Under the pieces are notes generated by a model, which saw only the letters and a program-made list of their open reading frames with translations, did no database searches and had not been told where the DNA came from. The translations under genes were made by a program, and so were the position numbers. From Halomicronema hongdechloris C2206 (GTDB lineage Bacteria > Cyanobacteriota > Cyanobacteriia > Phormidesmidales > Phormidesmidaceae): a stretch of 32,000 bases of DNA. Shown here in pieces: positions 11,941 to 31,652 of this stretch. The stretch's first letter is position 1. Each line of letters opens with the position of its first letter. The stretch is taken from NCBI RefSeq assembly GCF_002075285.3, contig NZ_CP021983.2, positions 1,350,001-1,382,000 on the forward strand, written 5' to 3'.

Positions 11941-13074
11941 CTAGCGGGGTTGAGCCGGTGCAGCGCTGTACATGAACGTCTTGAACAACCCATAGACATC
12001 TGCCCAGCGAACGCTGGTAATCAAATCAGGCTCTGCTGTCCCCTCCTGTCCTCGGAGCACATCCATCATTTCCGGCCTTAACGTCTCCGCCCAGGCAATC
12101 TGCTGAGTGAGTCCCCGCTGGTCAAAAAACTGCTTTAACTCTGCACGGATGAAATAGGCGGCACCGCCACCCACAATCACGTCCACTTCGGAAGCGGGCA
12201 GCCACTCCACCAAAAATTGATTGACTCGCTCCAGGTAAAACTCGCGAGCATAGATGCTGGCTTGAGACAGATCGAGGGCTTCCTGCCGACCGGGAATCTG
12301 AAACGTTTCATGGTTCTGAAGAATGGCTTCGAGCAAAGCTGGGTCATCGGGAGCGACACCAGGCAATTCAGTTGCACATTGCTTCAGGTACTCCACAAAT
12401 CCAGGTCCTCGAGAAGTGCTGTTGGTTTCCTGGGGAGTGCTGCCCTTCTCGAAGGTAAGGATGGAGAGATTGCGGTGGCCAAACATGAGGACAACAACAG
12501 TGCGATCGCGAATACTGATACCCGATTTTGCCAACTGCAACCCCTTCGCTAGATAAAGCCCCGCTCCCTCCGGCTGCATCTCGATTCGCTCTAGCTGCCC
12601 AGAGAGGACTTTGCCACGAAAGCTGAATTCTGAAATTGCCCCTTGCATCTGGGCTTTGAGTTCTTTCCGGTCTTGCCAGTATTCCTCCAGCGGCAGCAGC
12701 AACCCTAAATGAACTCCGAACTCACAACCAGAGTTGTCAGAATCATGTCTACTCAAAGTCTTGTCGGCAATAACGCCTAATGTCGCCAGGATTTTGTAGA
12801 CGGCGCGATCGCGCTTCGGCAGAGCTAATCCAGAGTCGCCCTTTTGAGCGATCGCGAGTGCCCCAACGGCATAGGTGCCATTGCCCACCGTGATGTAAGC
12901 ACTATCTTCCGGTTCCTGACTGGTGAGTCCGCCTAACGTGAGGCGATCGAGGCGGGAGGGGTTGAGGCGAGCCACTTGCGGAGCCAGGTGCAGTAATTCA
13001 GGTTTACGATGCCAATAAAAACACTTGGTCGCGGAGCTACCCATGTCAATGTAAGTCTGGAGCTTTGCAGTCAT
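11941..13074 (-). CDS. Actin-fold (ParM/Alp-like) plasmid segregation ATPase
   Basis: 377-aa ORF. The N-terminal YIDMGSSATK fits the phosphate-1 DxGxxxxK motif of ParM-type actins. VIVGGGAAYF fits the adenosine/GGG motif. The phosphate-2 region (VVLMFGHRNLSILTF) is divergent. The gene sits next to a relaxase and upstream of two small genes, as in parMR loci. Confidence 0.55.
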   Translation of the reverse strand: MTAKLQTYIDMGSSATKCFYWHRKPELLHLAPQVARLNPSRLDRLTLGGLTSQEPEDSAYITVGNGTYAVGALAIAQKGDSGLALPKRDRAVYKILATLGVIADKTLSRHDSDNSGCEFGVHLGLLLPLEEYWQDRKELKAQMQGAISEFSFRGKVLSGQLERIEMQPEGAGLYLAKGLQLAKSGISIRDRTVVVLMFGHRNLSILTFEKGSTPQETNSTSRGPGFVEYLKQCATELPGVAPDDPALLEAILQNHETFQIPGRQEALDLSQASIYAREFYLERVNQFLVEWLPASEVDVIVGGGAAYFIRAELKQFFDQRGLTQQIAWAETLRPEMMDVLRGQEGTAEPDLITSVRWADVYGLFKTFMYSAAPAQPR

Positions 13075-16999: not shown

Positions 17000-17009
17000 T
17001 GGTTTTTCT

Positions 17010-20000: not shown

Positions 20001-20543
20001 ACCGGGACGTCCGACTAGCAATACATGGTCATCGGCATATTTGCAAATGCCTTCCAGCACAGGTAAGCGCTCAGTTTTCTCCTGCTGCTCCTGAAGTGGG
20101 TTCGCTTCCGAAACAGCCGAATCCTTTTCTTTCGGAACAGTCTGGACCATCAAGCCAAAGTCAAAGGGGGATGGACTCTCTGACTCCGATTCCTGAATTT
20201 TGCCAGTGGCATCGGTCAGCGTGTAGTAACGCCACCACTCTTTGTAGGTATCAACCAGCGATCTCAAGTAGGACTGAAAGCCAATCTGCGCTGGCGTCTT
20301 CGAAGCTGCACTGTTCTGAATTGCCTCGACGATCGCCTGCACCGCTGCATCATTGATTTCGACGAAGGTGCGATCGCCAATCTGAATGTCTTTGCCTTCG
20401 CCGATGGTGATGTTGTACTTGCCCAATTGAAACAGCGATCGCCCTTCTTCCCCCTGTAGAGCCTGCTGCAATGCCATAATATCTGCCTTGGAGTATTCAC
20501 CTAAGGCAATGCGTTGAATGATGTCTTGCAGGCGATCGCTCAT
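17010..20543 (-). CDS. NACHT (STAND) NTPase with an N-terminal GKYN..IGEG..IGDR motif domain and a long C-terminal HEAT-repeat array
   Basis: 1177-aa ORF with ATG at 20541-20543. Walker A is GRPGSGKST (about 19986-20012) and Walker B is LLLVDGLNELP. It also has TPLLLWMLCEV and the winged-helix motif IEFRHQLIQEYYAAE. C-terminal HEAT/PBS-lyase-type repeats include DEDIRWIAACEVASFGDESAIPALQEAL, DSVTRRSAAHALRDVGDEEAL and DPKIQIRLSAALILAKEGATDSIPVLIEAL. Confidence 0.85.
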   Translation of the reverse strand: MSDRLQDIIQRIALGEYSKADIMALQQALQGEEGRSLFQLGKYNITIGEGKDIQIGDRTFVEINDAAVQAIVEAIQNSAASKTPAQIGFQSYLRSLVDTYKEWWRYYTLTDATGKIQESESESPSPFDFGLMVQTVPKEKDSAVSEANPLQEQQEKTERLPVLEGICKYADDHVLLVGRPGSGKSTALIRLLLETATQALEQGSGQIPILVELRYWQTSVIDRIQAFLHKHDPTLSLDDSTLTSLLRQGHFLLLVDGLNELPSETARTHLASFRQDYSKVPMIFTTRELGLGGDLGIEKKLEMQSLTEEQMKAFIRAYVSDQAEAMLGQLSDRLREFGQTPLLLWMLCEVFQQSPEHQMPSNLAGIFQAFTRMYEDSSVRKHEVTLLKGDVRPLSDRRLWKPALQALAAVMMQGETPVDFRVAIHRDEAEQELSRIFSNEQFPVRDILDDLLKYHLLQNRSTDQIEFRHQLIQEYYAAEHLLRLLPDLSDEELKRDYLNLLKWTEPIALMLALVDEEAQALRVVKLAMNDVDSMLGARLAGNAKHNLQVSAVNSVNDLSVPLKLKIKLLGETKSFAAISFLSPLLESDEAFIKSETIKALGKVNTLSSVDTLKKALEDSDEDIRWIAACEVASFGDESAIPALQEALCVEKHHFRALLAIENIDRDKVIPLLGETLIHADLEARRKAITSLHLLLNKGYGDILPFLEIALHDEDSVTRRSAAHALRDVGDEEALSILAKAWLDDDMQVRNFVCDSLQKDALVFLENDLINALKSNDSVVKKRAIEIVTKTQSISETIAEALLSVAFLDSDFLVRNSASTALIIVDDLTVMHVLERVLTEDDSKTTQYSSKHSVAISILLQKRKKESIPILIKALLNEHENLSVKTFAIKALGEIGDSTVISFLKENLRRAEKELNETGNVFEFNQIYIQTLLALGKLGVENLDQSIIEILEDLSSTEDIRKDCIETLGKIPTEASRGALVRSLHDPKIQIRLSAALILAKEGATDSIPVLIEALGCRNSIGFEDSSVSRDAIGALCELGGGCLTALKTELSSQDSQVRKNARLAIKRISGDSNDIYHDYLSTEQSTGDNVSIMIDRLVNEYSFDELIEALKIANSDEVWKFASSLKEIIQPDQIGYLSKLLLESDSNNIFTYVPSLISTIQSRCKFYNYEIFQSIIP
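20532..20539. repeat. HIP1 octamer GCGATCGC, one verified example of many copies
   Basis: Other copies verified by position are 20370-20377, 22979-22986 and 27737-27744. Many more are visible, for example near 1901, 2233, 19353, 19548, 23025, 23428, 27610, 27704 and 30302. HIP1 over-representation is a hallmark of many cyanobacterial genomes. Confidence 0.8.
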
Positions 20544-21084
20544 TGATAATCGGCAACGTCTAGTTTGATTACTCAGAGATGGAGAGTAGCCCTTGCTGAA
20601 CTGCTGCTCTACTTACGGCCAATCTATCTCCTCGTTTAATTTTCGAGAAATTTTGGATAGATGGTGGGAAAAATCCAGATTCTCTTTACTCAGAGCGTCA
20701 ATGACGGCACCATCCCTATCGGCAAACAGAGCAGAGGAATGAGCAAACTGGTAGTACATGCAGCAGATCAAGTAGCTCTATCCCGTCATTAACCAGAATG
20801 AGGATACAGCGAAGAAGCTACAGGAAGCAGCAGCTCTTGATACTAAAGGGTTTAACCGCTTTGGGGGCTGCGTTACGGGGGCTGTAGCGGATGCTTTTTG
20901 CCGTTCTCCCACTTCAACTTTACGAATCAATTACAACATTTGCTTGCATGGTGTATTTGTACTAAGCTAGATGCGTTTCGTTTAAGGGCTCTACACAAAA
21001 TTGGATGCATCCTTTTTTGTCCGATCGCTGATGAGCGCTCCATCAGGCATTAAACAGTGATGAACCATTGAAAGGAACTAATCC

Positions 21085-21255
21085 ATGACTCCACTTGAAC
21101 GCTTGAAAGCAGGCTTGGAAAGATCTAAAGAAAACGGATGCGAAGACACTAGTACGGCTAATCAGTCTCAGCAAGATTATGAGCAACGGGCTGATGAAGC
21201 TGATCGCCAGTTACGTGAAAAGCAAGCTCGCGAATTGAAGAAGTTCTGGAGCTAA
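21085..21255 (+). CDS. Small charged hypothetical protein (56 aa)
   Basis: ATG at 21085 follows AAAGGA, and TAA is at 21253-21255. The translation is MTPLERLKAGLERSKENGCEDTSTANQSQQDYEQRADEADRQLREKQARELKKFWS. It falls below the ORF-track cutoff and has no recognised family. Confidence 0.25.
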   Translation: MTPLERLKAGLERSKENGCEDTSTANQSQQDYEQRADEADRQLREKQARELKKFWS

Positions 21256-21392
21256 ATTGAAGCTTGGCTGAGTTTTAGCCATCTGCCTCCTTAGATTAGG
21301 AAACCTGTCTCCTCGGTAATTTGCTGTGATGTAATAGCCGAGGAGCCGGATTTCTTTATGAAAACTAAATACAGAAGCATCCTGTTTATCGT

Positions 21393-21629
21393 TTGGGCTC
21401 TAGTAGAGGGGATTGGTCTTTAATATACCTATCCTTTGGAGCCATGCCACCCGAAGAGAATTTTGAGCAGCAACTTAGAAAGCTAGTTTTTGAAGATAAC
21501 TGTGATCTGGACGATGCTTTTACTCAAGCAAAAAATGATCACCAAAACCTTGCTGGAAAAGCCGACAAGCTTTTCGAGATCAAGCAAAAAGTCGCTTTAG
21601 ATCTTAAAAATTTTAAGCGCAAGTCTTGA
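21393..21629 (+). CDS. Small charged hypothetical protein; probable start at 21444 gives 61 aa
   Basis: The internal ATG at 21444 is preceded by GGAG (MPPEENFEQQLRKLVFEDN...). The product is predicted helical and Lys/Glu-rich. No family recognised. Confidence 0.3.
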   Translation: MGSSRGDWSLIYLSFGAMPPEENFEQQLRKLVFEDNCDLDDAFTQAKNDHQNLAGKADKLFEIKQKVALDLKNFKRKS

Positions 21630-21677
21630 CGGCAGATCAATCTGGATGACATGCAAATACAATTTCCAATTCTGTCG

Positions 21678-22706
21678 CTAGTCGATGTCTATGTGTTCGT
21701 AGTCAGGCAAACGCTCAATTAGATAAGCAATGTATCCCTGTAGCTGAACAACACTATGTGAAGGCAAGTTTTCTGGAAGCAGATTCAGCCCCAGATAGTT
21801 CAATGCAAATATATAGAGTTCATCTTCAATAACTACTGGTGTAACAGGGTTTTCTAAACTATTTTTACGTCCCCAAGTCAAGCAATGACCAAGGTTTTCT
21901 AGAAATTGGTCTAGCGTAAAGTAAAACGCATCTATTTTTTCTTGAGACGCACTATTCTGAATGTCAGAATAGTGCTCTAAAGTATATTTTCCCAAAGACC
22001 TAGCTAAACCATTAGCCCGCTTCCGATCTAGCCAGCGGGCTACGACTTTGCCATCTTCTAATTCCTCGCGGAGCTGTTGGAGTAGCTTGATTTGTTCTTG
22101 AAGACACGTTTGGGAACGAGCTTCCGCGAGACTATTTTCCTGGCTGCTTTCGAGAGCTTGCAATTTTGCCGTCAGATTGTCTACCCCAGCTTGGAGGAGG
22201 ATGTCGGCCTTAGCGGCAAGGGCAGACAATTCCTGCTGCACTTCCATGAGCTGCATGACCTTTCCTTTGACTTGATTGAAATCTGCTAGGTGTTGCTGGG
22301 GAAGGTGTCCTAATTTACGGAGTTCCTCTAGAGCCGCCAGACGAGTATTGAGATGATCTGCCAGTTGAGGTTCAAAAACAAGGGTAGGTAAAGGGGGATC
22401 CTCCAGGGGTGTTTCAGCTAGCTCAGTAGCGGAAGGAACACTCTGTACCAGCAAAGTTGCCTGAACAATCGCGCGAATATCGGCGGCAGTAGGGCCATAG
22501 TAGCGATGTCCCACCTGAACATCAGTCCCCTCGCCAATGACCGTATTGAATTTCCCATCCTGGGAAACAGATTGATTGACATTGGATGGGGGTAGTGGAG
22601 TTAACTGGCCATTTCTGGCTAGAGGCTTTTCAGTCGATTCAGATGTATCACCCTGTTTATCCAGCATCTTTGTTTCTAGCGAAAAAAGCTGATGTGTCCC
22701 GAGCAT
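21678..22706 (-). CDS. P-loop-less protein with an N-terminal GKFN..IGEG..VG motif, a coiled coil and an unknown C-terminal domain. Candidate adaptor or effector of the NACHT cluster.
   Basis: 342-aa ORF; the start may instead be Met14. The motif QDGKFNTVIGEGTDVQVGHRYYGPTAADIRAIVQ lies at nt 22503-22556. A heptad-like stretch covers about aa 120-220. The gene is divergently transcribed from the 874-aa NACHT gene, 94 nt away. Confidence 0.6.
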   Translation of the reverse strand: MLGTHQLFSLETKMLDKQGDTSESTEKPLARNGQLTPLPPSNVNQSVSQDGKFNTVIGEGTDVQVGHRYYGPTAADIRAIVQATLLVQSVPSATELAETPLEDPPLPTLVFEPQLADHLNTRLAALEELRKLGHLPQQHLADFNQVKGKVMQLMEVQQELSALAAKADILLQAGVDNLTAKLQALESSQENSLAEARSQTCLQEQIKLLQQLREELEDGKVVARWLDRKRANGLARSLGKYTLEHYSDIQNSASQEKIDAFYFTLDQFLENLGHCLTWGRKNSLENPVTPVVIEDELYIFALNYLGLNLLPENLPSHSVVQLQGYIAYLIERLPDYEHIDID

Positions 22707-22800
22707 AACCCAGGAATTTGACCATAGCCAACTGTATGATCTTTAAGGGGAGTCTTTAAGCTTGCGTCGTCAACTTTTCTTAACACCCGATTAGCTTCGC

Positions 22801-25425
22801 ATGCCAATACCTGACGAGTTACTGCCGTTGATAGACCAAATCCTCAATCGCATTGAGCAAGATGGGGCAGCTTTGAAGAGTTGGCGGCAAACGGAAGATG
22901 GCCAGAAAATCATTCAGTATGTGGTGCAAATTGGTAAATACAACACCACTGTAGGCGAAGGAAAAGATATTTCAATTGGCGATCGCCTGGATCGAGCTTT
23001 GCTTGAGGAAGTGCGTAACTTGCTGCGATCGCAACTCTCGTCTCAAGTAGTAGAAATCAACTGGTCGCAAGTCAGCAGATTGCTTTTAGAACGCCAAGTT
23101 CAACGTCTGACCTCAAATCCTTTAACCCATGCCGAGGGGGTCACCTATCGCACTGAACAGGTGTATGTGCCACTGGGGTTGGTGGAGCGCAAGAAGGTGT
23201 CGCGTCACCGGGAGGATGTGCCCCCAGAGCAAGGCTCGTTGCTGTACAAGGAGACGGAGATTTCTCAGAAGTTTGAACAAGCAGTGTTTCTGGAGCAGGT
23301 GTTACGACAGGGGCAGAGCCCTCGGAGTGGGGGGCGACGGATTGTGATCATTGGGGAGCCAGGGGCGGGCAAGACGACGCTGTTGCAGCAGATGGCCTGG
23401 TGGGTGACGGAAAACATTGAAGGGGCGATCGCGATTTGGGTGTCGTTAGCGGGTTTGCAGGGGCGAGCTCTGGAGAATTATCTGCTAGAGCAGTGGTTAC
23501 CGGCAGTAGTGCAGCAGCAGGGACAGGCGGAAGCTTCGACACAAGTGAAGGATGCGCTAGTGGCGCAGTTTCGCGCGGGGCGGGTATGGCTGTGGCTTGA
23601 TGGGGTGGATGAGATGCCAGTAGCAGCGGGTAATCCGCTGAATGAGGTTGAGCGACAGGTGAGATTGGGAGGTTTGTTGGCGCAGGCGCGGATCGTGTTG
23701 ACCTGTCGGTTGAATCTGTGGGACGGAGAACGTCATGCGCTTGATACTTTCGACGTTTATCGGACGTTGGAGTTTACTTATCCGAAGCAGGTAGAGCAGG
23801 TCGTCGGGCAGTGGTTTGGGGCGTTGCCAGAAGCCCAGGTAGGGCAGGCAGAGCGGTTGTGTGAGGCATTACGGCAACCGGGAAAAGAGCGACTGCGAGA
23901 TTTAGTGAAGAATCCACTCCGGCTAACTTTGTTGTGTTTCAACTGGTATTTGGGAGAGGGAACGCTACCGGAAACGAAGGCTGGATTGTATGAGCAGTTT
24001 GTGGCGGATTTTTATGAGTGGAAGCGGGAGCGGTTTCCGACGACAGCGGAGCAACGAAGGCAGTTAAATGCGGCACTGGGTGAGTTGGCACGGGAGGCAA
24101 TCGATAAGGAGGAAACCCGGTTCCGACTGCGGCATGATTTTGTGTGCAAATTTTTGGGCGAACCGGATGAGCCTGATTCGTTGTTTCAGATGGCATTGCG
24201 GTTGGGATGGCTGAATCAAATCGGTGTGGATGCGGACAATCGGCGAAAGGCAGTGTATGCGTTTTTCCATCCCACGTTTCAGGAATATTTTGCAGCATCG
24301 ATTATAGTGAAGCAGTTTCAGGAAAATAGCATCACCTTTGAGCAATTGAAAACCGATATTCTTAGTAAATATTGGCAAGATGACTCATGGCATGAAGTTC
24401 TACTACTAGTTTGTGGATTGGTCAGCAACAAGATCTCCACTAAAATAATTGATTTTTTCATTGATCATTTTGAGTCGGGCAAGAATTTAATACGTCAAAA
24501 TGAGAACCAATCAATTTTCCAACAAGCCAGCCTTTTCGAACCCATAGAAGACTTTGAAAATAAAAATTTTGATAATGATTTTGAGAACGAGGATTTTAGT
24601 GTCCCTGAATATTTCAGTAGAAATTACAACTTTAATAGTAGTAGCCTTGCTTTTGCAATCTCCATTTCCCAAGAGATAAATAATGGCCACAATAGTAAGA
24701 TGACTCGTCAAAATTTAATTGCTCGCCTCGAAGATCATCTTGAATATCTTGAGGACTTTGTTGAAAGCCTTGGGAACTATACTTGGGATAACCTTACTGC
24801 AGACTATCTTAATCGTATATTTAGCGATATAGCTATTTTGGGACAAGGTTATAAAGAAGTTTTCAACTATCTTGCAAGTAAAGCCTGCGATGCTGAATTA
24901 CAAGAAATATGTTCAGCATCAATCAGAGCACTTGCAGAACATTGGAATAATGATGAAATGTTACTGGAATTATTAGTGAAAGCTGCTATTAAAAACCGTT
25001 TCGGCACATCAAAGTTTTCAATCAATGATCCAAATCTGGTGACTAGCCCTCGTAAGATAGCGCTAGAAGCTCTTTTTATTCGTTATCCAAATCATGCAAA
25101 AACCATACAAGCTTTAAAGGATCGCGCAATCAATGATCCAGACGAACCAGTTCGATGGTATGCAGCCCAAGCCTTGGGCCAATTAGCGAAAAGCACTCCT
25201 GAAATCATGGATTTTTTATTTTCAGTTGTTAAAAATTCTCGCTATGACAGCAAATATAATTACCGAGTTAGTCCACGCCATACAATTTTAGGCGCGATAG
25301 TTTTGCACTGTTCAAATCATTTCCAAGCTTTTGCTCTTTTATCAGATTTGGCACTTAATGATTCTAATGAAGAACTACGTCTATGGGTGAAAGAACAACT
25401 TAAAAACTGGGAATCACCAGTGTGA
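22801..25425 (+). CDS. NACHT (STAND) NTPase with an N-terminal GKYN..IGEG..IGDR motif and a C-terminal helical/HEAT-like sensor region
   Basis: 874-aa ORF. Walker A is GEPGAGKTT (23353-23376) and Walker B is WLWLDGVDEMP. It also has NPLRLTLLCF and FFHPTFQEYFAA (about 24265-24300). C-terminal HEAT-like units are DPDEPVRWYAAQALGQLAKS and NDSNEELRLWVKEQL. Confidence 0.85.
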   Translation: MPIPDELLPLIDQILNRIEQDGAALKSWRQTEDGQKIIQYVVQIGKYNTTVGEGKDISIGDRLDRALLEEVRNLLRSQLSSQVVEINWSQVSRLLLERQVQRLTSNPLTHAEGVTYRTEQVYVPLGLVERKKVSRHREDVPPEQGSLLYKETEISQKFEQAVFLEQVLRQGQSPRSGGRRIVIIGEPGAGKTTLLQQMAWWVTENIEGAIAIWVSLAGLQGRALENYLLEQWLPAVVQQQGQAEASTQVKDALVAQFRAGRVWLWLDGVDEMPVAAGNPLNEVERQVRLGGLLAQARIVLTCRLNLWDGERHALDTFDVYRTLEFTYPKQVEQVVGQWFGALPEAQVGQAERLCEALRQPGKERLRDLVKNPLRLTLLCFNWYLGEGTLPETKAGLYEQFVADFYEWKRERFPTTAEQRRQLNAALGELAREAIDKEETRFRLRHDFVCKFLGEPDEPDSLFQMALRLGWLNQIGVDADNRRKAVYAFFHPTFQEYFAASIIVKQFQENSITFEQLKTDILSKYWQDDSWHEVLLLVCGLVSNKISTKIIDFFIDHFESGKNLIRQNENQSIFQQASLFEPIEDFENKNFDNDFENEDFSVPEYFSRNYNFNSSSLAFAISISQEINNGHNSKMTRQNLIARLEDHLEYLEDFVESLGNYTWDNLTADYLNRIFSDIAILGQGYKEVFNYLASKACDAELQEICSASIRALAEHWNNDEMLLELLVKAAIKNRFGTSKFSINDPNLVTSPRKIALEALFIRYPNHAKTIQALKDRAINDPDEPVRWYAAQALGQLAKSTPEIMDFLFSVVKNSRYDSKYNYRVSPRHTILGAIVLHCSNHFQAFALLSDLALNDSNEELRLWVKEQLKNWESPV

Positions 25426-25489
25426 ATTCTGATGTTTTCTGGCTACATTCCAAATCTGCTAAGCGTTATTCGATTTTCCAATTCAAAAG

Positions 25490-27922
25490 CTAATTATTGT
25501 CAGTTTTTTTGTGGCTTCGTTTTTCAATTTCGGCGATTGGCAACAGTAATGTATCTACAATCTCTCGCTGGACTCCATAATTTACTGAAGCATTCCTATT
25601 TAGACAATCCATTAACAGCTTATTAGCTTCATAGTAATTCTGAAGTATTTGTTTTTGTTTCCAATTCGCTTGCCAGTTACTGCCTAGATCCCGATGATTA
25701 TCTAAAATCAAATGAATCTGCCGTGACCAATCATCATGATTGGCTGCCCACCAGTCATCTAGATATCCCCATCGTGAGTGTTGCTCATAAGCAGGTGAGT
25801 CTTTAGATAGATAATATTCAGATGGAGGCAATAAGCTCAGAATAACATTATTTATGTACTGGTTGGTTTCTACGTCTAAAGGGTATGTACTATAAAGGCA
25901 CAGGGGTGCAGATCTCTCAAATTCTGCTTCATCGTCGGGTCGCCAATTTCGATTCGGTAAATCAGCTTTTTGAAGATGAATATTAATTTTTTTGTCCTCA
26001 AATTTATTGATAAAGAGAAAAACTGCAAAATCGTAAGTTGAACTATTGGGACGAGAGAAAAAGCCATACAGTAAGTCATATAATGAACGATATTCAGAGT
26101 TGAGATTTTGGTCGATTTTGGCAAATAGATGATTGACAGGATCATTTTCAAGGTTTTGAACAAAAGCCAGGAAAATAGCTCTCAAGGCAGCTAATTTATA
26201 ATTTTCCTTTGTAGCCTTTGCTTTATGAGATATCCATGATAGAAACGAGTTTATTTCAAGCTCATTAGCAACTAATTTATCTATATAATTTTTCATTGAG
26301 GCTAACAAATTGTTTGCGTCAGACAGTAGCTCGATCGTAAGAAGAAACACCTCTTGCCAGTGCTTGTTAATGCACTGAATGCTCATATTTTCAAAGTCTT
26401 TTGTTGCACAAAACCATTGCGCTACTAAATATTCTTGAAAAGTTAGATGTGAAAATGTCCAAACCTTCTGGCTTCTCTCAAGCAATAACCCATGCTGAGC
26501 TTCGATTGCCCGCAATACCCCCCGACTCTCCCGCAACCCAATTCCCAAAAACTCCGCAATATACTCCTCAATCTCCGCTTGCTCAAACAACACATACTGC
26601 TCCTGCTCAAACTTCTTCACGGCCAGATAGCTTAATAGCCCCAGCTTCCGCTCCACCGACAAATCGCGATAAATCTCATCCCGCTCAATCTCCCGCGACT
26701 TATCCCACTGCTCCAGCAGTAACTCCAATCCTTCTTCGTAGAGTTTCGACCTCTTCGAATAAAACTTTCCCGACTGGTGAAACACTGCACAAGTCAAACT
26801 CAGCAAAATTGGAGTAATTGCCAATTCCCGAATCGACTTGTTCTCCTCCCGAAACAATTGTTCCAAAAATGCTGTTGTCTTAGCCTGACCTGCGGTGAGA
26901 TCCCCACAAACCGTCTGAAACCAATGCTCGGCAAACGCTCTTACCTGCGGCTCATTAAAATCCGCCACTTCTACGTAATCAAACCGCTCAAACCGCGACT
27001 CCTGGCTCTGCGTCCGGCATGTCACAATTATCTGCACCTGCGGATAAGCTCGCGCAAACCGCTTGATTTGCTTAGCGATTGCCTGCCCATCTGCCCCCGT
27101 CACCTCATCCAGCCCATCCAGCAGCACCAGGGATCGGCCTTCACCCAGCACCAGCCGCACAGCCTGATCCGACAACTGCCAGCATCGTTCCAAATACCGC
27201 TCTATTGAGTAACCAACTTCACGCCCATCCTCCACAAACTCCCGCAGCCGAATTAACACCGGAATTCGGTGCGTCTGCAAATTGCCCGCATTACACTCCG
27301 TCACTACCCGCTGCAAATACGTCGTCTTTCCCGAACCCGGCTTGCCCACCACCATCAGGTTGGTATCCCTGTCCAGCACCTTCAGTCCCGACACCCGTTG
27401 CCGTTCCTTACCCAAGCCCATGCGATCCAAACCGCGATAGCTGGGATTCTGGCTGAAGTCTTGCCACAGATCTACTAACTCCGATCGCCGATTGCTACTC
27501 ACCTCCTCCAGAATATTCACATCCACAAACAACTCGCCCAGTGGCACCCAACGATCCACCCCCCATAGCGGCATCGTGCCGTACAAGCGCTGAATGTCAT
27601 TGTGGATGCGCGATCGCACCTGCTGCACGAGCTCGTCTACTGACGTAACTTCTGCTGAATGAGACGGTTCTGACTTGTTTATCTCTTCTCGAATGGCTTG
27701 AGCGATCGCCTGGATATTCTCCTCCGTCAATTCGAGGCGATCGCCAATATGTATCTGCCCCAGGGCTTGCTGGATATTGACTGCGTACTTACCGACTTGC
27801 AGCACTGAAGGGGAGCAATCGCCTTCACCAAAAAAATCTCGCAGCGTTTGTAGATCAGCTTCAGTATGGTCGCCTTTAGCAATGCGCTCCAGGATAATTG
27901 GCAAATCCTCAAACTGAGCCAT
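25490..27922 (-). CDS. NACHT (STAND) NTPase with the N-terminal GKY...IGDR motif and a C-terminal all-helical domain of the type common in cyanobacterial NACHT proteins
   Basis: 810-aa ORF with ATG at 27920-27922. Walker A is GKPGSGKTT (27323-27346) and Walker B is LVLLDGLDEV. It also has TPILLSLTCAVF and FSHLTFQEYLVA (about 26429-26450). The C-terminal end QNYYEANKLLMDCLNRNASVNYGVQREIVDTLLLPIAEI matches a recurrent cyanobacterial NACHT C-terminal helical module, from memory. Confidence 0.85.
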   Translation of the reverse strand: MAQFEDLPIILERIAKGDHTEADLQTLRDFFGEGDCSPSVLQVGKYAVNIQQALGQIHIGDRLELTEENIQAIAQAIREEINKSEPSHSAEVTSVDELVQQVRSRIHNDIQRLYGTMPLWGVDRWVPLGELFVDVNILEEVSSNRRSELVDLWQDFSQNPSYRGLDRMGLGKERQRVSGLKVLDRDTNLMVVGKPGSGKTTYLQRVVTECNAGNLQTHRIPVLIRLREFVEDGREVGYSIERYLERCWQLSDQAVRLVLGEGRSLVLLDGLDEVTGADGQAIAKQIKRFARAYPQVQIIVTCRTQSQESRFERFDYVEVADFNEPQVRAFAEHWFQTVCGDLTAGQAKTTAFLEQLFREENKSIRELAITPILLSLTCAVFHQSGKFYSKRSKLYEEGLELLLEQWDKSREIERDEIYRDLSVERKLGLLSYLAVKKFEQEQYVLFEQAEIEEYIAEFLGIGLRESRGVLRAIEAQHGLLLERSQKVWTFSHLTFQEYLVAQWFCATKDFENMSIQCINKHWQEVFLLTIELLSDANNLLASMKNYIDKLVANELEINSFLSWISHKAKATKENYKLAALRAIFLAFVQNLENDPVNHLFAKIDQNLNSEYRSLYDLLYGFFSRPNSSTYDFAVFLFINKFEDKKINIHLQKADLPNRNWRPDDEAEFERSAPLCLYSTYPLDVETNQYINNVILSLLPPSEYYLSKDSPAYEQHSRWGYLDDWWAANHDDWSRQIHLILDNHRDLGSNWQANWKQKQILQNYYEANKLLMDCLNRNASVNYGVQREIVDTLLLPIAEIEKRSHKKTDNN

Positions 27923-28119
27923 ACGTGACGAATCCCGTCAACTTTGAAATACAACAGCGAAAGCTGCCTGAATCATAGCCTTTTGCCCGCTTTGCCGTGA
28001 CTCCGATGGTTTGTGAAGTGGCGCATTGCTTATTGGACAGAGTGCGATCGTGACATTCCATTTTAGAGCAACTATGAAGTTCGGAAAACACAGCGGACCT
28101 ACTCAGGTACAGTGCTGAG

Positions 28120-30417
28120 CTACTTTAGGGGCATGGTGGCAAAATGCTCTTGCACGAGCTTATGAATAAATCGATAGCGCCCGCCAACGCGCTGCAATAA
28201 GAGACGCTCTGTGCAGTGGTTGAGGAAGCGAGCGTAGTTCCAAGGACCATTTTCACTTCTGAAGAGCAACAACCTAAGCACGAAATGCTGAATAAGAGGC
28301 CATCCAATTGATGCAAAACTCATTAAAAATCCACAAATTGCTCCAAAAAAAACTATTTTCGGAACCTCTCTGGCAATAATATTCGAGTCTGGGCTGAGGA
28401 AAACAAATCCAAAAACAAATAGCCCAAGTAAAGCATTAAATAAAAAACATGAGGCTAGAAGTAGTTTCAGATTTTGACGAATTCCATGATTGGGATAAAT
28501 CTTGAATTCTATGGGCTTCCTTAGGCCTTTAAATACTCCAAACATAATCCCAAAAACCATCCATAATGCTGCCATCACAAAGATCCAAACAAAAAACATA
28601 CTGAATAAATCAAATAATTGTGTTCCTACGATTGATCCTCCATCGTGCTGAGGTGATTTAATGACAAAAAGTCGAGGTGAGTAAAGCCATGCAAATAAGG
28701 CAGTTACTAAGCTCACAAGACCAAAGCCGGCACCTGATAATGAGCCCAAGAGCACCCATTTTTTTAGCAGCCTTGGTTTGATTTCTCGAATAGAAAAGGC
28801 TTCAGTAAACTCAATGCTAGTTTGACTATTCTTGAATCCCAAGTAAAAACCTGCCATAGATGCTAACAAAGCCCCCCCCAAAGCCGCACGAATGAAGGTG
28901 AAATGCATAAGCTCAGCCAATGTTACCGAAATTCTTGCATTGGAAGAAGAAGAGACTCCCCAGAGAATGGTTGAGGTTTCAGGAGAAATCGAAGTTAACA
29001 AGCCAAAAAGTAGCAAGGATAAGAAATAGTGAATCGAACCAGTAAATACACTAAACAGAATGGAAGTTGTCAATATATATTTTCTGTGCTGGTTTGGTTT
29101 TAAAGTGCTTGCCTGTACTTCTTCAATTGAAAAATCATCAATAAAAGACTTGCCAAGCATTTGTGCAAGCCATACAAGCTGTAATCGAATTGTCTTAGCT
29201 GTAGGATGGCTACCTATTAAATAGTCCTTACTATTTATGACTTCATGAAGTCGTCGTTCCACATAAGCGTCCAGCAAGTACTCCATCCTGGCTTGGGTGG
29301 TTTGCTTTTGCTGCCAACGTTCTGGCTCTATACCATCATTGGCAAGTAAGGCCACACTCAACAGTAGTGGCGTGCGTACCAAAGCGAGGAGTTCTGCATC
29401 CTGGCACAGGGTTTCCCACAAGTCCTGACGGCTTAATGAGGTCAGGTAGCTTTGCAATTGCTCATCGGTCAGAGGTTCCAGGCAAATGGCTCCATTGAGT
29501 TCCAGTTTGGTATCGTACAGGTCGTATTCTTCCATGCGGCTGCACACCAGCATCCCCGTTGGCCCCTCCCCAGATCGCAACCATTCGTTGATTGCTTGCA
29601 CCACAGATTCTTGTCGCTCAGGGGGCAGTTCATCTAGACCATCGAGTAAGGGCAGCAACGTTTTCTGCGTTAGCCAGGATTTCCCCAGCTTGGGCGACAC
29701 CCCGTACTTCAGCCTGAGTTCGTTCACCAGCCAGTCTGTCAAGCTCTGCTTCGCACTTTGCCAGGACGACAGGTTTACCATCACCGGAATCGGCTGTTCT
29801 GGGTCATCATTCGCCCGCTGAATCAGCACCGCCGCCAGATCCAGCATGGTGGTGGTTTTGCCAGCGCCGGGGTTACCCAGAATCAGCAACCTGCCTCCCA
29901 CCTCCCGCCGATCAAACACCTCAGCAACGTGAGTCCCTGGGGGTAGTTGCTTGGGCTTCCGGTCAGCAGTACGAATCTGGCTATCCCAGGGACGGCTCAC
30001 CTGGGTGCGGTCTTCGGCCATATCGAGCCGCACCAGAATGGCATTGTGTAGCGACTGTCGCAAGCGATCTTCTACCTCTGTCCATACGGCAGCAATCAGC
30101 GTTTTTTCGTTGCCGTCCTTACGGGTGGGTTGCGGCTGCGTTTCTGGCAATCCATAAAAGTAGGCGCTTGAGGCTGCCAGCACCTCCTGCAATACCAGTT
30201 TTAAGGTTTCTGCATCCATCCCCTGATGAATCACCACCCGGTTGTTATCACCCAAGATGTTGTCACTTCCCGTGACAATCTTTGCGCCAGTTGCATCGCG
30301 GGCGATCGCCACCGCTCCCTGACCAGACGCACTGACCTCCGCCAGTAGCGCCTGAAGGTTTTCCTGAGGGAGCTCCTTCAGTGCCGCTTTCAGGTTTTCC
30401 AGGCTATCTGACATCAA
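28120..30417 (-). CDS. NACHT (STAND) NTPase with an N-terminal Gly/Asn-rich motif and a roughly 6-helix transmembrane block inserted before the terminal winged-helix motif
   Basis: The ORF track starts at TTG 30415-30417; ATG at 30412-30414 is the more likely start, 8 nt after the caspase stop. Walker A is GNPGAGKTT (29854-29877) and Walker B is LLPLLDGLDELP, followed by RTPLLLSVALL. Hydrophobic segments span aa ~447-718 (nt 28264-29079). The final 36 aa contain the canonical GGRYRFIHKLVQEHFA motif. Confidence 0.8.
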   Translation of the reverse strand: MMSDSLENLKAALKELPQENLQALLAEVSASGQGAVAIARDATGAKIVTGSDNILGDNNRVVIHQGMDAETLKLVLQEVLAASSAYFYGLPETQPQPTRKDGNEKTLIAAVWTEVEDRLRQSLHNAILVRLDMAEDRTQVSRPWDSQIRTADRKPKQLPPGTHVAEVFDRREVGGRLLILGNPGAGKTTTMLDLAAVLIQRANDDPEQPIPVMVNLSSWQSAKQSLTDWLVNELRLKYGVSPKLGKSWLTQKTLLPLLDGLDELPPERQESVVQAINEWLRSGEGPTGMLVCSRMEEYDLYDTKLELNGAICLEPLTDEQLQSYLTSLSRQDLWETLCQDAELLALVRTPLLLSVALLANDGIEPERWQQKQTTQARMEYLLDAYVERRLHEVINSKDYLIGSHPTAKTIRLQLVWLAQMLGKSFIDDFSIEEVQASTLKPNQHRKYILTTSILFSVFTGSIHYFLSLLLFGLLTSISPETSTILWGVSSSSNARISVTLAELMHFTFIRAALGGALLASMAGFYLGFKNSQTSIEFTEAFSIREIKPRLLKKWVLLGSLSGAGFGLVSLVTALFAWLYSPRLFVIKSPQHDGGSIVGTQLFDLFSMFFVWIFVMAALWMVFGIMFGVFKGLRKPIEFKIYPNHGIRQNLKLLLASCFLFNALLGLFVFGFVFLSPDSNIIAREVPKIVFFGAICGFLMSFASIGWPLIQHFVLRLLLFRSENGPWNYARFLNHCTERLLLQRVGGRYRFIHKLVQEHFATMPLK

Positions 30418-30422
30418 ACCAC

Positions 30423-31469
30423 TTACTCCTTGTCAGCTTGATCAGCACCAAAAGTGTCACCAATGTGCAAACCCTGGATATTGTCTCCCATGCTGATGTT
30501 GTACTTACCTTTTTGATTCACAGTCTGCACTCGGTTATTGTTGCCAACGATGTTGCCCTGTCCAGTAACAATCGTTGCCCCCTGCGCGTTCTGAACCGCA
30601 ACTGCGCCATCTCCTGAAGCTGCGATCGTGGTTTGAATCATTTGGCCGTTCAATTCACCAGGCTGTGACTCAATCCGAGGCTTGGATGCTAACTCAGGCG
30701 GCAGGCCCTTCGGCTGCAGATCGCCTCCGGCATAGTACGCCAGCACAAAGTTATCGGCCTTCTCAATGTCCAGCACAGGGTGTTGTTTATCGCTGGTCAA
30801 TGTCGGCACAATGCGGCTGGCATACATCGCTAAATCCGTCGCCCGAATGTAGCCATCTTGCTGGGTGGCTCCTTCCCCACATAATCCCTTCATCAGGGCA
30901 TAGGTAAAGGCACTGTAGGGTTCTCCGGCATAGGACAACTCATCTGGCCGTGAGGAGCCAATCATGATGCGTCCGCCTCCTTTGGCAAACATCCTTTGCG
31001 CTTCCGGCGGCAGCGGAGCTTTGGTCGCTGCAAAGGCAGAGACATCACTTAATCCGCCAGCATGGCAGCAATCCAGCATCACCAGCAGTTTCTGCGCCGG
31101 AATCTCGCGCAGGTAATCCACAAACTCACTGCCGCTAATGGCGGTCTCATCCAAAGCTTCAGTGTTGTAGCCGTAGGGCATTAAAAAATAAGACTTAAAC
31201 GGCTTTTGCAGTTGGTGGCCATGTCCTGAGAAATAAATCAGCACCGTCGAATCGTCGTCGGTTGAATTCGCTAAGGTCTCCAAAGTTTGCAAAATCTGGC
31301 TGCGGGTTGCCTTTTCCCCCGTAAGGAAATGCACCTGGCTTTCTGGATAGGCACAGCGCTCGGGGTCTTGCAGAACCTTCGCCAGACCTTTAGCATCGGT
31401 GGCGGTAGTCGGCAAATCGCCACCGACTCCAATCACGCAAGCATGCCCTTGTTCAAAAAGGTGACTCAT
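30423..31469 (-). CDS. Caspase-like peptidase C14 (orthocaspase/metacaspase-like) with a C-terminal Gly/Asn-rich motif tail
   Basis: 348-aa ORF with ATG at 31467-31469. The His-Cys dyad context is LIYFSGHGHQ and VMLDCCHAGG. The C-terminal ~70 aa are non-protease: AASGDGAVAVQNAQGATIVTGQGNIVGNNNRVQTVNQKGKYNISMGDNIQGLHIGD. Confidence 0.85.
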   Translation of the reverse strand: MSHLFEQGHACVIGVGGDLPTTATDAKGLAKVLQDPERCAYPESQVHFLTGEKATRSQILQTLETLANSTDDDSTVLIYFSGHGHQLQKPFKSYFLMPYGYNTEALDETAISGSEFVDYLREIPAQKLLVMLDCCHAGGLSDVSAFAATKAPLPPEAQRMFAKGGGRIMIGSSRPDELSYAGEPYSAFTYALMKGLCGEGATQQDGYIRATDLAMYASRIVPTLTSDKQHPVLDIEKADNFVLAYYAGGDLQPKGLPPELASKPRIESQPGELNGQMIQTTIAASGDGAVAVQNAQGATIVTGQGNIVGNNNRVQTVNQKGKYNISMGDNIQGLHIGDTFGADQADKE

Positions 31470-31652
31470 TTCTGTTTGCCCTCAACTGGAAAATCCTTCG
31501 AGTCTTCCGCCATTATGACCTCGCCGCTAAGAAGGGTTAGCGTTTTTTAGCAATAAAATTTAGTCTTACGATGACTTAGCCATGTTTTTTTGCAGGCAGG
31601 AGTCGTGAGCTGTAGTCATAACAATTGAGATCGCCCTTCAACCCATCTCCCC

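Follow-up and report, generated by a model that had tools for sequence, protein, structure and literature searches.

An EAD10 beta-core shared by four NACHT proteins, a fifth protein and the bipartite tail of a single caspase in Halomicronema hongdechloris

Introduction

The EAD10 domain (Pfam PF19954) belongs to the NTP-dependent conflict systems described by Kaur, Burroughs, Iyer and Aravind (eLife 2020, PMC7159879; extended in eLife 2021, PMC8195603). EADs were originally recognised in VMAP/vWA-MoxR ternary systems and follow a common rule: the same small domain is carried by the core NTPase and by an effector encoded in an adjacent gene, and acts homotypically, with partners sometimes encoded elsewhere in the genome (PMC7159879). 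EAD10 was described as alpha+beta, and amyloid is not invoked by Kaur et al., the word being absent from their paper (PMC7159879).

A second group of systems uses bacterial amyloid signalling sequences (BASS), in which adjacent, collinear genes carry the same short motif at the effector C-terminus and in the N-terminal region of an NLR; on effectors the motifs can form pseudorepeats, and CHAT caspase-type domains are found among the effectors (Dyrka et al. 2020). Amyloid signalling by BASS11 was demonstrated in the E. coli antiphage system Bab/Agp (Ibarlosa et al. 2024). Fibril formation has been shown for BASS1, BASS3 and BASS11, and not for BASS6 or EAD10.

The locus described here is, on balance, best read as an EAD10-coupled, multi-sensor STAND-caspase module for cell death or defence, situated on a mobile island, rich in defence genes, of the Halomicronema hongdechloris C2206 chromosome. 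The coupling principle, the EAD10 domain and caspase-type effectors are already published, and the proteins are already labelled by Pfam and UniProt, so the locus stands as a clear case of known bacterial immune or cell-death wiring. Modestly new are the bipartite (A+B) tail of the caspase and the overlap between EAD10 and BASS.

A common beta-core in the window

An earlier note on the window (the whole 32-kb stretch of DNA analysed) had reported one motif in five proteins. The ranges it gave translate to GKYNITIGEGKDIQIGDR, GKYNTTVGEGKDISIGDR, GKYAVNIQQALGQIHIGDR, GKFNTVIGEGTDVQVGHR and GKYNISMGDNIQGLHIGD, and correspond to the 18–19 aa motif core; the 22–23 aa strings quoted with them reach 6 nt further on each side, and the coordinates given below for the five copies are those of the longer strings. 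A profile built from the five copies was searched against all six reading frames of the window (707 segments, 43.6 k residues) and matched the same five ORFs only, with E-values of 1e-12 to 9e-14 and a next-best match at E = 2.1. A regular expression recovered the same five ORFs where none was expected (200 shuffles). The motif is beyond chance.

The motif is the beta-core of EAD10, an existing Pfam family that had gone unmentioned in the earlier note. On sensors the domain consists of two helices, the Gly/Asn-rich beta-core and a C-terminal helix, and the 'similar helix' noticed previously ahead of the motif corresponds to the conserved helices at the N-terminus of the EAD10 consensus (...ILDRIANGEQTEADIAALRQLL...). 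Conservation of the core covers about 20–35 residues with an alternating beta pattern, closing in a near-invariant G-D-(R), and within the window the sensor and effector cores share only about 30–64% identity. Among the proteins that carry it N-terminally the core falls into two classes, A (N765) and B (N1177, N874, N810 and P342).

The motif family comprises 494 representative clusters in which the motif position is fixed. All 83 long representatives (83/83) are EAD10 proteins, in which STAND NTPase modules are the most frequent partner domains (NACHT in 18, NB-ARC in 14, plus nSTAND3 and nSTAND_NTPase5). Together with the agreement between caspase tails and neighbouring genes described below, this supports the proposal that the motif is a sensor-to-effector adaptor and not a generic N-terminal cap.

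In an AF2 model of N1177 aa 1–90 (pLDDT 71.8, pTM 0.56), helices at residues 2–13, 19–30 and 65–81 surround four short strands at 36–60. The sensor-side motif is accordingly predicted to lie inside a folded alpha+beta domain, between conserved helices, and not at the free N-terminus where fungal and BASS NLRs carry theirs, a position that a globular adaptor and a masked amyloid nucleus fit equally. AF2 confidence for EAD10 is only moderate, and no solved fold resembles the domain.

NACHT proteins and P342

Four NACHT proteins bear an N-terminal EAD10 (N1177, N874, N810 and N765). Their N-terminal ~77 aa match the EAD10 model, and the Pfam score exceeds the family cut-off in all four and in P342. 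Walker A was found in each; the strict Walker B pattern was found in three of the four, the corresponding segment of N765 (LLPLLDGLDE) being read by eye. The NACHT and caspase domains are intact. The NACHT modules bear a weak resemblance to Avs2 and to the antiphage NACHT models EruA and HyoA, but score far under the cut-offs (38 vs 1000 bits) and so are not members of these named families.

N1177 (17010..20543, minus strand) is a B-type EAD10-NACHT protein with HEAT repeats (Pfam EAD10 1.9e-21, NACHT 1e-12, HEAT_2 7e-49); its EAD10 spans nt 20319–20540, and its motif B (nt 20364–20429) contains the RHIM-like DIQIGD. N874 (22801..25425, plus strand; EAD10 1.1e-18, NACHT 4e-11) is likewise B-type (EAD10 at nt 22801–23031, motif B at nt 22927–22992) and has a helical/HEAT-like C-terminus. 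The third B-type protein, N810 (25490..27922, minus strand; EAD10 1e-20, NACHT 3e-20, NCH2 1e-23), ends in a helical NCH2 region, with EAD10 at nt 27692–27922 and motif B at nt 27731–27799.

N765 (28120..30417, minus strand, 765 aa), a membrane-anchored NACHT overlooked in the earlier note, has an EAD10 with a different core, of A type (Pfam EAD10 E 1.7e-11, aa 5–79), followed by NACHT (Walker A at aa 181) and a C-terminal part with about six TM-like segments, its hydrophobic stretches falling within aa 341–703. Its motif A core, VSASGQGAVAIARDATGAKIVTGSDNILGDNNRV (aa 28–61, nt 30235..30336, minus strand), scores 37.3 bits with an A profile derived from the caspase tail, and is the second-best match in the window to a profile of published BASS6 sequences (E 0.045). 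Only 5 nt separate the caspase stop from the N765 start, and the N765 Shine-Dalgarno sequence (AAGGAG) sits within the 3′ end of the caspase gene; N765 is the operonic partner of the caspase. N810 begins 197 nt downstream of N765, on the same strand.

P342 (21678..22706, minus strand) was described as lacking a P-loop, and no Walker A was found in it. This non-NTPase has only the beta-core and C-terminal helix of EAD10 (Pfam E 2.9e-8, profile positions 36–76; aa 44–83, nt 22458–22577), with the motif at nt 22497–22562, N-terminal as in the sensors. A sequence reading as coiled coil follows, then a C-terminal module without a family match; a sequence search found no PDB relative of P342. RefSeq begins the protein at Met14 (329 aa), and UniProt names it 'Effector-associated domain-containing protein'. 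Its family is small (8 clusters) and is found beside other EAD10 genes and genes for caspase-TIR or CHAT proteins, in one case directly downstream of a caspase. P342 might provide input, serve as an adaptor or be a second effector.

The caspase and its bipartite tail

The effector is a Peptidase_C14 caspase of 348 aa (30423..31469, minus strand; Pfam E 5e-19; ASC70380.1/WP_080807484.1, caspase family protein of H. hongdechloris). It comprises a catalytic domain (~aa 8–235) that retains SGHG (aa 81) and DCCH (aa 133), a Pro-rich linker (~aa 247–281) and a motif-bearing tail (aa 282–343). The AF2 model is confident for aa 1–275, while residues 276–348 have pLDDT <50 and are without secondary structure.

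Two different cores lie in tandem in the tail, A and then B, without the flanking EAD10 helices. Motif B, QKGKYNISMGDNIQGLHIGDTFG (aa 319–341, nt 30447..30515, minus strand), is the copy that the earlier note had reported and was recovered by profile and regular expression. Motif A, IAASGDGAVAVQNAQGATIVTGQGNIVGNNNRVQ (aa 282–315, nt 30525..30626, minus strand), a second tail motif that the earlier note did not report, is BASS6-like and the cognate of the N765 N-terminus, with 64% identity to the N765 core over profile columns; it is the top match in the window to the BASS6 profile (E 1.1e-3). The tail also has the compositional bias of BASS (G+N+Q+V+I 59%, K+P+L 5%). The isolated tail matches EAD10 profile positions 36–61 only, at 15.7 bits, under the 24.1-bit cut-off.

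The tail is conserved. In 34 homologues of 56–88% overall identity, conservation reaches 90% or more at Q319, K322, I336, G337 and D338. Among 118 homologous caspase tails, 70 are of AB type, 17 A-only and 17 B-only; motif A was found in 87, and 84 match EAD10 profile positions ~25–70. The EAD10 profile detected the N-terminal helices in none of the 118.

Tail class predicts neighbour class

Tail and neighbour classes were compared in 80 related genome loci and the window. Motif-bearing neighbours occur at 20/28 loci with motif-positive tails vs 4/53 others (OR 30, p = 4e-9), and the four exceptions proved to have degenerate A or B tails. The neighbouring N-termini mostly match EAD10 positions 1–78. 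The 11 single-class loci agree without exception: the A-only tails (4 loci) are accompanied by A-type neighbours only and the B-only tails (7 loci) by B-type only, with none discordant (Fisher p = 0.003; like the other p values of this comparison, calculated without phylogenetic correction, several B-only loci being related Nostocales). B-only caspases adjoin B-type neighbours in 7/7 loci, so within the family B works as a caspase-coupling element.

In 10/19 loci a matching motif is borne by the gene that comes next to the caspase downstream on its strand, and the pair of a caspase followed by an A-type NACHT gene also occurs in Leptolyngbya sp. CCNP1308 (L001). Motif identity is higher within a locus than between loci (0.53 vs 0.49; permutation p ~0.03 per class), and at one locus (L013) a private GKYSTY[IV]E variant is common to the caspase and a P342-like neighbour. 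AB-tailed caspases elsewhere frequently have neighbours of a single class within 10 kb, so that reading the double tail as an OR gate rests mainly on this window.

Proposed mechanism and alternatives

Most likely, EAD10 links the single caspase to the four NACHT proteins as sensors and to one further protein. Convergence of sensors on one caspase, as proposed in the earlier note, thus stands as the most likely arrangement, while its count of three is replaced by four sensors with two motif classes. The sensors differ C-terminally, where N1177 has HEAT repeats, N874 a helical/HEAT-like region, N810 NCH2 and N765 a multi-pass membrane region. We infer that a ligand would trigger NTP-dependent NACHT oligomerisation, clustering the EAD10 cores, and that the clustered cores would nucleate homotypic beta-stacking with the matching core of the caspase tail. 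The favoured physical form would be a beta-arch or beta-solenoid; by analogy with BASS and HET-s/NWD2, an amyloid-like template is plausible. Caspase domains concentrated in this way could then become proteolytically active, with cell death or defence as the presumed outcome, and the tandem A+B tail may act as an OR gate through which one caspase serves both sensor classes.

The same wiring could operate without templating, if a globular alpha+beta EAD10 bound the caspase tail stoichiometrically (e.g., by beta-sheet augmentation) in a peptide-in-domain contact, in the manner of CARD/Death-fold domains and with no amyloid polymer. We consider this possible, if rather doubtful. It is consistent with the compact helix-helix-four-strand-helix unit predicted for N1177, with the family-wide conservation of the EAD10 helices, and with the small homotypic domains of Kaur et al., who leave amyloid unmentioned (PMC7159879). 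EAD10 also remains immediately N-terminal to the NTPase even in proteins with a Trypsin or TIR effector fused upstream, as a structural adaptor would. However, two thirds of the 'domain' are missing on the effector side, which excludes a symmetric domain-domain contact, and tandem helix-less repeats occur both in the caspases (A+B) and in the family member P0156 (four B cores). Stacking repeats better explain the BASS-type composition and BASS6 similarity, and the globular model itself has only moderate AF2 confidence and no solved counterpart.

An improbable arrangement is that N765 alone signals to the caspase, the B-type proteins N1177, N874, N810 and P342 forming a separate EAD10 network with effectors elsewhere in the genome and tail motif B being an inherited relic without local use. 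The caspase and N765 are the sole canonical collinear pair, one that recurs in L001, while N874 is encoded on the other strand and a 1.1-kb gap separates N1177 from P342; among ancestral tail forms AB is the most frequent (70/118), often with single-class neighbours, and EAD partners may be distant in the genome (PMC7159879). Against this, the motif B residues of the tail are strongly conserved, B-only caspases consistently adjoin B-type genes, N810 follows N765 on the same strand, and profile and regular expression found no motif-B effector besides the caspase within the 32-kb window. The closing G-D-(R) and the protease nature of the effector might instead suggest a recognition or cleavage element (e.g., ...IGD|R...) in caspase substrates and the caspase's own tail. 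This is very unlikely: the core is also fused to non-protease partners (TIR, FGE-sulfatase), BASS6 sequences resemble motif A, the conserved stretch is far longer than a cleavage site needs, and class-specific A/B pairing would not be expected. That the recurrence of a short, Gly/Asn-rich motif reflects chance or its low-complexity composition, without any functional connection, has next to no credibility, and is refuted by the shuffles (5 observed, 0 expected) and profile E-values, the Pfam E-values of 1e-8 to 1e-21, the 494 clusters with fixed motif position and the strong genomic association.

Comparison with known systems

BASS are among the closest parallels. A short G/N/Q/V/I-rich beta motif is present on the caspase C-terminus and the NACHT N-terminal region, the genes are collinear with a tiny gap, and the effector has pseudorepeats behind a Pro-rich linker. 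Motif A is similar to published BASS6 sequences, for instance AGVNVIASGNRSVAIGGNVSGSTIITGD and LGERSVAIGGDVTGSVIVTGDRNTVQQGKYNIQIDQAS, the second of which runs from an A-like motif into QQGKYNIQ. In N1177 and P342, motif B shares GKY...G-[IV]-Q-[IV]-G-D with the RHIM-like BASS3, but motif B lacks the NTQxNxF second half, and the match is weak (E 0.054, first 22/30 profile positions; P342 not significant). The window also differs in that its effector is a Peptidase_C14 caspase instead of a Bell domain, and its NLR motif begins at about aa 28–42, between conserved helices, not at the extreme N-terminus.

In the fungal HET-S/NWD2 (HRAM) system, the NLR has one motif copy and the effector two pseudorepeats after a flexible linker, in a region that is unstructured before activation. 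The caspase similarly has a two-motif, unstructured tail after a linker, with one core per NLR, but its two repeats are of different classes for different sensors, not one motif twice. The G-phi-Q-phi-G tetrad of mammalian RHIM (RIPK1/RIPK3) recurs in N1177 (IQIG) and P342 (VQVG); homology to HET-S/NWD2 or RHIM is not detectable past the tetrad, and the effector here is a protease instead of a pore-former or kinase.

In the apoptosome and inflammasomes, oligomers of a STAND NTPase sensor recruit or activate a protease of the caspase family via a small homotypic adaptor (CARD/Death-fold), as would occur here, although EAD10 is not a six-helix Death fold. The bNACHT and Avs antiphage STAND proteins share the sensor logic, with weak NACHT similarity only. 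Compared with EAD10/VMAP systems, the core NTPases are simple NACHT proteins, the window containing no MoxR-vWA pair, and the effector copy is a beta-core only, Pfam sub-threshold, with two different cores in tandem. The likeness to EAD10 systems nevertheless extends to an NTPase copy and an adjacent-gene copy on an enzymatic effector, several copies per locus, the predicted alpha+beta character and a phyletic setting among filamentous or multicellular prokaryotes.

Identity of the shared motif

A Gly/Asn-rich motif (motif B) had been described in three NACHT sensors, N1177 (17010–20543, minus strand), N874 (22801–25425, plus strand) and N810 (25490–27922, minus strand), in P342, a non-NTPase protein of 342 aa (21678–22706, minus strand), and at the C-terminus of a Peptidase_C14 protein of 348 aa, the caspase (30423–31469, minus strand). 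The five intervals assigned to it gave the quoted cores on translation; each covers a core of 18–19 aa, and the quoted strings of 22–23 aa run past it by 6 nt at either end. When a profile made from the five copies was searched against all 707 stop-to-stop segments of the six reading frames (43.6 k residues in total), the motif was confined to the same five ORFs (E = 1e-12 to 9e-14; next match E = 2.1). These were also the ORFs matched by a regular expression, with 0 matches expected from 200 residue shuffles. The window, with its 1.1-kb gap at 20544–21677, yielded no further motif copies and no RNAs or tRNAs (no Rfam match).

The N-terminal ~77 residues of N1177, N874 and N810 are the EAD10 domain (Pfam PF19954, E = 1e-18 to 1e-21). 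The earlier note overlooked a fourth EAD10-NACHT protein, N765 (28120–30417, minus strand; Pfam, E = 1.7e-11). The scores for N1177 (76.3 bits), N810 (73.9), N874 (67.4), N765 (44.4) and P342 (34.1) are all above the PF19954 gathering score of 24.1 bits. The helix reported to precede the motif in the NACHT proteins does align with the conserved N-terminal helices of the family (consensus ...ILDRIANGEQTEADIAALRQLL...QLGKYNVNIGEGKDIHIGDRIY...AEAIKALL). P342 aligns to profile positions 36–76 alone, which represent the beta-core and the C-terminal helix. The isolated caspase tail scores 15.7 bits, below the gathering score, over positions 36–61 only and in two stretches, and so is not a full member of the EAD10 family.

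EADs are small non-enzymatic domains, of which one copy lies on a core, NTPase-type component and another on the effector encoded by an adjacent gene; they have been proposed to work by homotypic interaction, and EAD10 belongs to a minority of alpha+beta character (Kaur et al., eLife 2020, PMC7159879). No enzymatic family match was found for EAD10 in Pfam. The corresponding gene layout is present in the window, with a core-only copy on the caspase, 5 nt from N765, and three further NACHT copies within 13 kb, and it was found again in related loci. The AF2 model of the N1177 domain (42-sequence alignment; pLDDT 71.8, pTM 0.56) predicts helices at residues 2–13, 19–30 and 65–81 and four short strands (36–40, 43–47, 53–55 and 58–60) that span the motif, in line with the alpha+beta character described for EAD10. 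Searches for solved relatives returned none by sequence for EAD10 or P342 (best E = 0.17), and none by fold for EAD10 at E ≤ 1e-3 (TM below 0.33). The window belongs to the H. hongdechloris C2206 chromosome (ASC70372–ASC70380).

The caspase, its tail and its partners

The Peptidase_C14 domain of the caspase is intact, with SGHG and DCCH present, and was modelled confidently by AF2 (34-sequence alignment). It is followed by a Pro-rich linker and a tail bearing two distinct cores rich in Gly and Asn, motif A (aa 282–315, IAASGDGAVAVQNAQGATIVTGQGNIVGNNNRVQ) and the previously described motif B (aa 319–341). In the same monomer model, residues 276–348 have pLDDT values below 50 and are without secondary structure. 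G, N, Q, V and I together make up 59% of the tail (aa 283–343) and K, P and L 5%; the corresponding shares for the caspase domain are 24% and 22%. Conservation reaches at least 90% at residues Q319, K322, I336, G337 and D338, in homologues whose overall identity is just 56–88%.

Motif A is 64% identical to the EAD10 core of N765 (VSASGQGAVAIARDATGAKIVTGSDNILGDNNRV). The start of N765 lies 5 nt past the caspase stop on the same strand, with AAGGAG just upstream, within the 3′ end of the caspase gene. Given this identity and the 5-nt gap, the caspase and N765 read as a canonical operonic effector/NLR pair, probably coupled via motif A. About six TM-like segments in the C-terminal half of N765 (aa 341–703) suggest that it is a membrane-embedded sensor. 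N810 begins 197 nt beyond N765 on the same strand. Motif B would connect the caspase to N1177, N874, N810 and P342. The C-termini of the four NACHT proteins differ, comprising HEAT repeats, a helical/HEAT-like region, NCH2 and the membrane region.

After its EAD10 part (N-terminal beta-core and C-terminal helix), P342 continues with a stretch that looks like coiled coil and ends in a module without a family match. By eye, this module also occurs N-terminal to an EAD10 in P0237, a representative protein from outside the window. The P342 family consists of 8 clusters, and its genes adjoin other EAD10 genes as well as genes for caspase-TIR or CHAT proteins; members are found in the window (21678–22706, minus strand) and in related loci L013 (2052–3056), L081 (10001–11002) and L082 (934–1962). 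In Spirulina sp. SIO3F2, a P342 relative lies immediately 3′ of the caspase and has a private GKYSTY[IV]E variant in common with it, the variant recorded for the caspase and P342-like neighbour of L013. The RefSeq start of the P342 gene is Met14 (329 aa), and UniProt names the product 'Effector-associated domain-containing protein'.

Association of tails and neighbours in related loci

The caspase family comprises 559 matches at E ≤ 1e-5, chiefly cyanobacterial. Seventy of 118 tails carry both A and B, 17 only A, 17 only B, and 14 are of other types. Every EAD10-matching tail (84/84) covers the beta-core alone, never the N-terminal helices; the N-termini of neighbouring proteins mostly match the whole of EAD10. 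Related loci were scanned with one genome per species, giving 80 loci from cyanobacteria, Anaerolineae/Chloroflexota and Methanothrix. Motif-bearing neighbours occur at 20/28 loci with motif-positive tails versus 4/53 others (OR 30, p = 4e-9, without phylogenetic correction), and the tails of the four apparent exceptions are degenerate versions of A or B. Caspases with A-only tails (4 loci) have exclusively A-type neighbours, and those with B-only tails (7 loci) exclusively B-type ones, so that class concordance is 11/11 at single-class loci with 0 discordant (Fisher p = 0.003, without phylogenetic correction). The gene next after the caspase on the same strand bears the matching motif in 10/19 loci. 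Copies of an EAD in adjacent genes would, by the description of Kaur et al., be more alike than copies elsewhere; here, motif identity is slightly higher within a locus (0.53) than across loci (0.49; permutation p ~0.03 per class; 9 and 11 loci, without phylogenetic correction). Among the 81 loci, the window is alone in placing partners of the A type and of the B type next to a caspase with an AB tail.

A word-indexed search with the EAD10 region (100 aa) yielded just one protein and was replaced by an exhaustive profile search of representatives. This gave 494 representative clusters of 1.84 billion for the EAD10 (B) family (281 at E ≤ 1e-10), with the motif nearly always N-terminal. The size of this family, the residue shuffles and the genomic association together rule out chance or low complexity as the origin of the motif. 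It had also been considered that the motif might be a generic N-terminal cap spread over unrelated proteins; this does not hold, as 83/83 long members scanned are EAD10 and the main partners are STAND modules, namely NACHT (18), NB-ARC (14) and others, with TPR, WD40 or HEAT at the C-termini. Variant architectures include Trypsin-EAD10-NB-ARC-TPR, TIR-EAD10-NB-ARC and 2xEAD10-FGE-sulfatase. P0156, a representative protein of 212 aa, begins with a small domain rich in Gly, after which motif B is repeated four times in tandem without helices (VVQVGKYNTNIGVGNNVHIGDIG), a layout like that of an effector with pseudorepeats.

Homologues of the caspase domain at 47–58% identity are found in filamentous archaea (Methanothrix; loci L037, L062, L077 and L080) and in Anaerolineae/Chloroflexota (within L020–L079). 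Most of their tails score below the 10-bit threshold for A or B, and a Gly/Val-rich repeat tail was read only for L046 and for some other caspase homologues. The caspase scaffold thus seems to exchange its adaptor tail between phyla. At L081 (Sphaerothrix gracilis, 6497–9113), a caspase-TIR fusion is followed 4 nt on by an EAD10-GUN4 protein. The window caspase is named 'putative GUN4 domain containing protein' in GenBank and has no Pfam GUN4 match. There are hints that EAD10-GUN4 is a recurrent partner in the caspase family.

Genomic setting and gene composition

The region around the module is rich in defence genes and also contains genes of mobile elements. Upstream is a second defence-type block, all on the minus strand, with genes for a DruE-like DEAD/MZB helicase of 1847 aa (5366–10909; PADLOC DruE3, E = 9e-103), a GmrSD_N/HEC-05-like protein (2805–5369), a GajB-like UvrD helicase (766–2793) and an N-terminal fragment of a sacsin/TmtA-like protein cut by the window edge (32–748). 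Between the two blocks lie genes for a TrwC-type relaxase (14029–16710, plus strand; E = 1e-87) and an actin-like ALP_N protein of ParM type (11941–13074, minus strand; weak match). Since the relaxase and ParM-type genes lie on the chromosome, they suggest that a conjugative or mobilisable element has integrated here. A plasmid origin of the module was rejected: megablast of 17000–31500 found no similar plasmid in PLSDB, and the record is chromosomal.

Scores against known antiphage families, judged by NCBIfam or PADLOC thresholds, also led to the rejection of the NACHT proteins as members of EruA (38 and 32 bits, cut-off 1000), HyoA (23 bits, cut-off 1200) or Avs2 (22 bits), and of the caspase as the EACC1-associated type (97 bits, cut-off 140).

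Each of the four NACHT genes is chimeric in composition, with a GC3 of 0.58–0.60 over the first ~440–520 codons (EAD10, NACHT and helical parts) and of 0.29–0.38 in the C-terminal sensor part, at whose start the drop is sharp; per 100 codons, GC3 falls from about 0.55–0.70 to 0.23–0.37. The direction is the same in 23/25 long motif-bearing neighbours of related loci, and is strongest in L001. This internal drop suggests either that sensor modules were swapped in from donors of low GC content or that an AT-biased mutation process acts on the sensor part alone.

A possible signalling mechanism and its significance

To the observed domain identities, the conserved, helix-less bipartite tail and the class-specific genomic co-occurrence, a mechanism may be added in which ligand-induced oligomerisation of the NACHT proteins would cluster their EAD10 cores. 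The clustered cores could then recruit the matching core of the caspase tail via beta-stacking, and recruitment would activate the caspase by proximity, leading to cell death or abortive infection. A tail with both A and B would pool two sensor classes. From covariation, we infer homotypic interaction between EAD10 copies. The favoured template is amyloid-like or a beta-solenoid, in view of the helix-less tandem cores, their composition, precedent, and similarity to BASS6, one of the bacterial amyloid signalling sequences (BASS). The main rival is stoichiometric docking of the caspase tail onto a folded EAD10, which is compatible with the AF2 model of the domain and with its conserved helices. 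A less likely alternative is that N765 alone signals locally to the caspase.

An extension of the templating model, which we offer tentatively and consider rather unlikely, is that EAD10 is a 'caged' amyloid-signalling motif, with a BASS6-like or RHIM/BASS3-like core held between sensor helices and exposed only on NACHT oligomerisation. The helix-less tandem A+B tail of the caspase would then be a two-channel, prion-like receiver integrating two orthogonal template classes, from four sensors, into a single protease. If true, this would unite the EAD literature of Aravind with the BASS literature of Saupe and Dyrka, and would be the first bacterial example of amyloid signalling to a caspase that is multiplexed by class.

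The EAD10 adaptor, the coupling principle, short beta motifs associated with NLRs and caspase/CHAT-type partners are already published, and the window proteins are annotated accordingly in databases. As the adaptor, the coupling principle and the caspase-type partners were known, the gain is incremental and not conceptual. The searchable literature apparently does not state that a tail combines two classes in tandem and has class-concordant partners, that the effector copy is a bare beta-core, or that the EAD10 core overlaps with BASS6 and BASS3-like sequences. If the proposed wiring is true, the locus, whose 14.5 kb contain four sensors, one caspase and two classes of adaptor, would be a compact model of several NLR-type sensors sharing one caspase via short transferable cores. 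The same logic is found in apoptosomes, inflammasomes and the fungal HET-S/NWD2 system. Class-specific A/B pairing would amount to a specificity code that is directly testable.

Comparison with bacterial amyloid signalling sequences

BASS1–10 are motifs common to the C-termini of Bell effectors and the N-termini of adjacent NLRs, with pseudorepeats on the effector side and, as rarer effectors, CHAT caspase-type, TIR and hydrolase domains (Dyrka et al.). They were defined as motifs of ~25 aa present at an effector C-terminus and an NLR N-terminus within 5 kb, usually collinear and with a very short gap, and they have beta propensity, an excess of Q, N, G, V and I, and a deficit of K, P and L (Dyrka et al. 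2020). Amyloid behaviour has been demonstrated for BASS1, BASS3 and BASS11, the last in a working E. coli antiphage system. In the searchable literature, no explicit statement that EAD10 is a BASS was found; texts with both 'EAD10' and 'amyloid' do not equate them, the EAD papers do not give amyloid as a mechanism, and the amyloid-signalling review that was checked does not mention EADs.

The published BASS sequences were taken from the supplement of PMC8086366, in which label C09 is BASS6 (mapping checked via the motif legend and family sizes). They include, for BASS6, AGVNVIASGNRSVAIGGNVSGSTIITGD, which is like motif A, and LGERSVAIGGDVTGSVIVTGDRNTVQQGKYNIQIDQAS, which is A-like and runs on into QQGKYNIQ. 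A BASS6 profile ranked caspase motif A first (E = 1.1e-3) and the N765 core second (E = 0.045), in a small database of 707 segments and with a partial training set of 17. A BASS3 profile ranked N1177 first, weakly (E = 0.054, positions 3–22 of 30), with P342 at E = 7.3. The G-[IV]-Q-[IV]-G tetrad is present only in N1177 (IQIG) and P342 (VQVG), and the second half of BASS3, N-x-Q-x-N-x-F, is absent from all motif copies in the window. Motif B was rejected as a BASS3/RHIM member, since the first half alone aligns, and weakly.

The module differs from the usual BASS arrangement in two respects: its NLR-side motif begins at aa 28–42, behind two conserved helices, whereas BASS occupy a free, extreme N-terminus, and its effector is a Peptidase_C14 protein where the usual one has a Bell domain. 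It resembles BASS in the sharing of a motif between effector and NLR, motif A and the N765 core being 64% identical and encoded on the same strand with a 5-nt gap, in the composition of the caspase tail (59% versus 5% for the enriched and depleted residues), and in the four short strands predicted by AF2 on the EAD10 core. Given the overlap of the EAD10 core with BASS, two adaptor vocabularies that were introduced independently seem in part to name the same element; if shared, such an element would carry amyloid-type signalling beyond the pore-forming Bell effectors to proteases.
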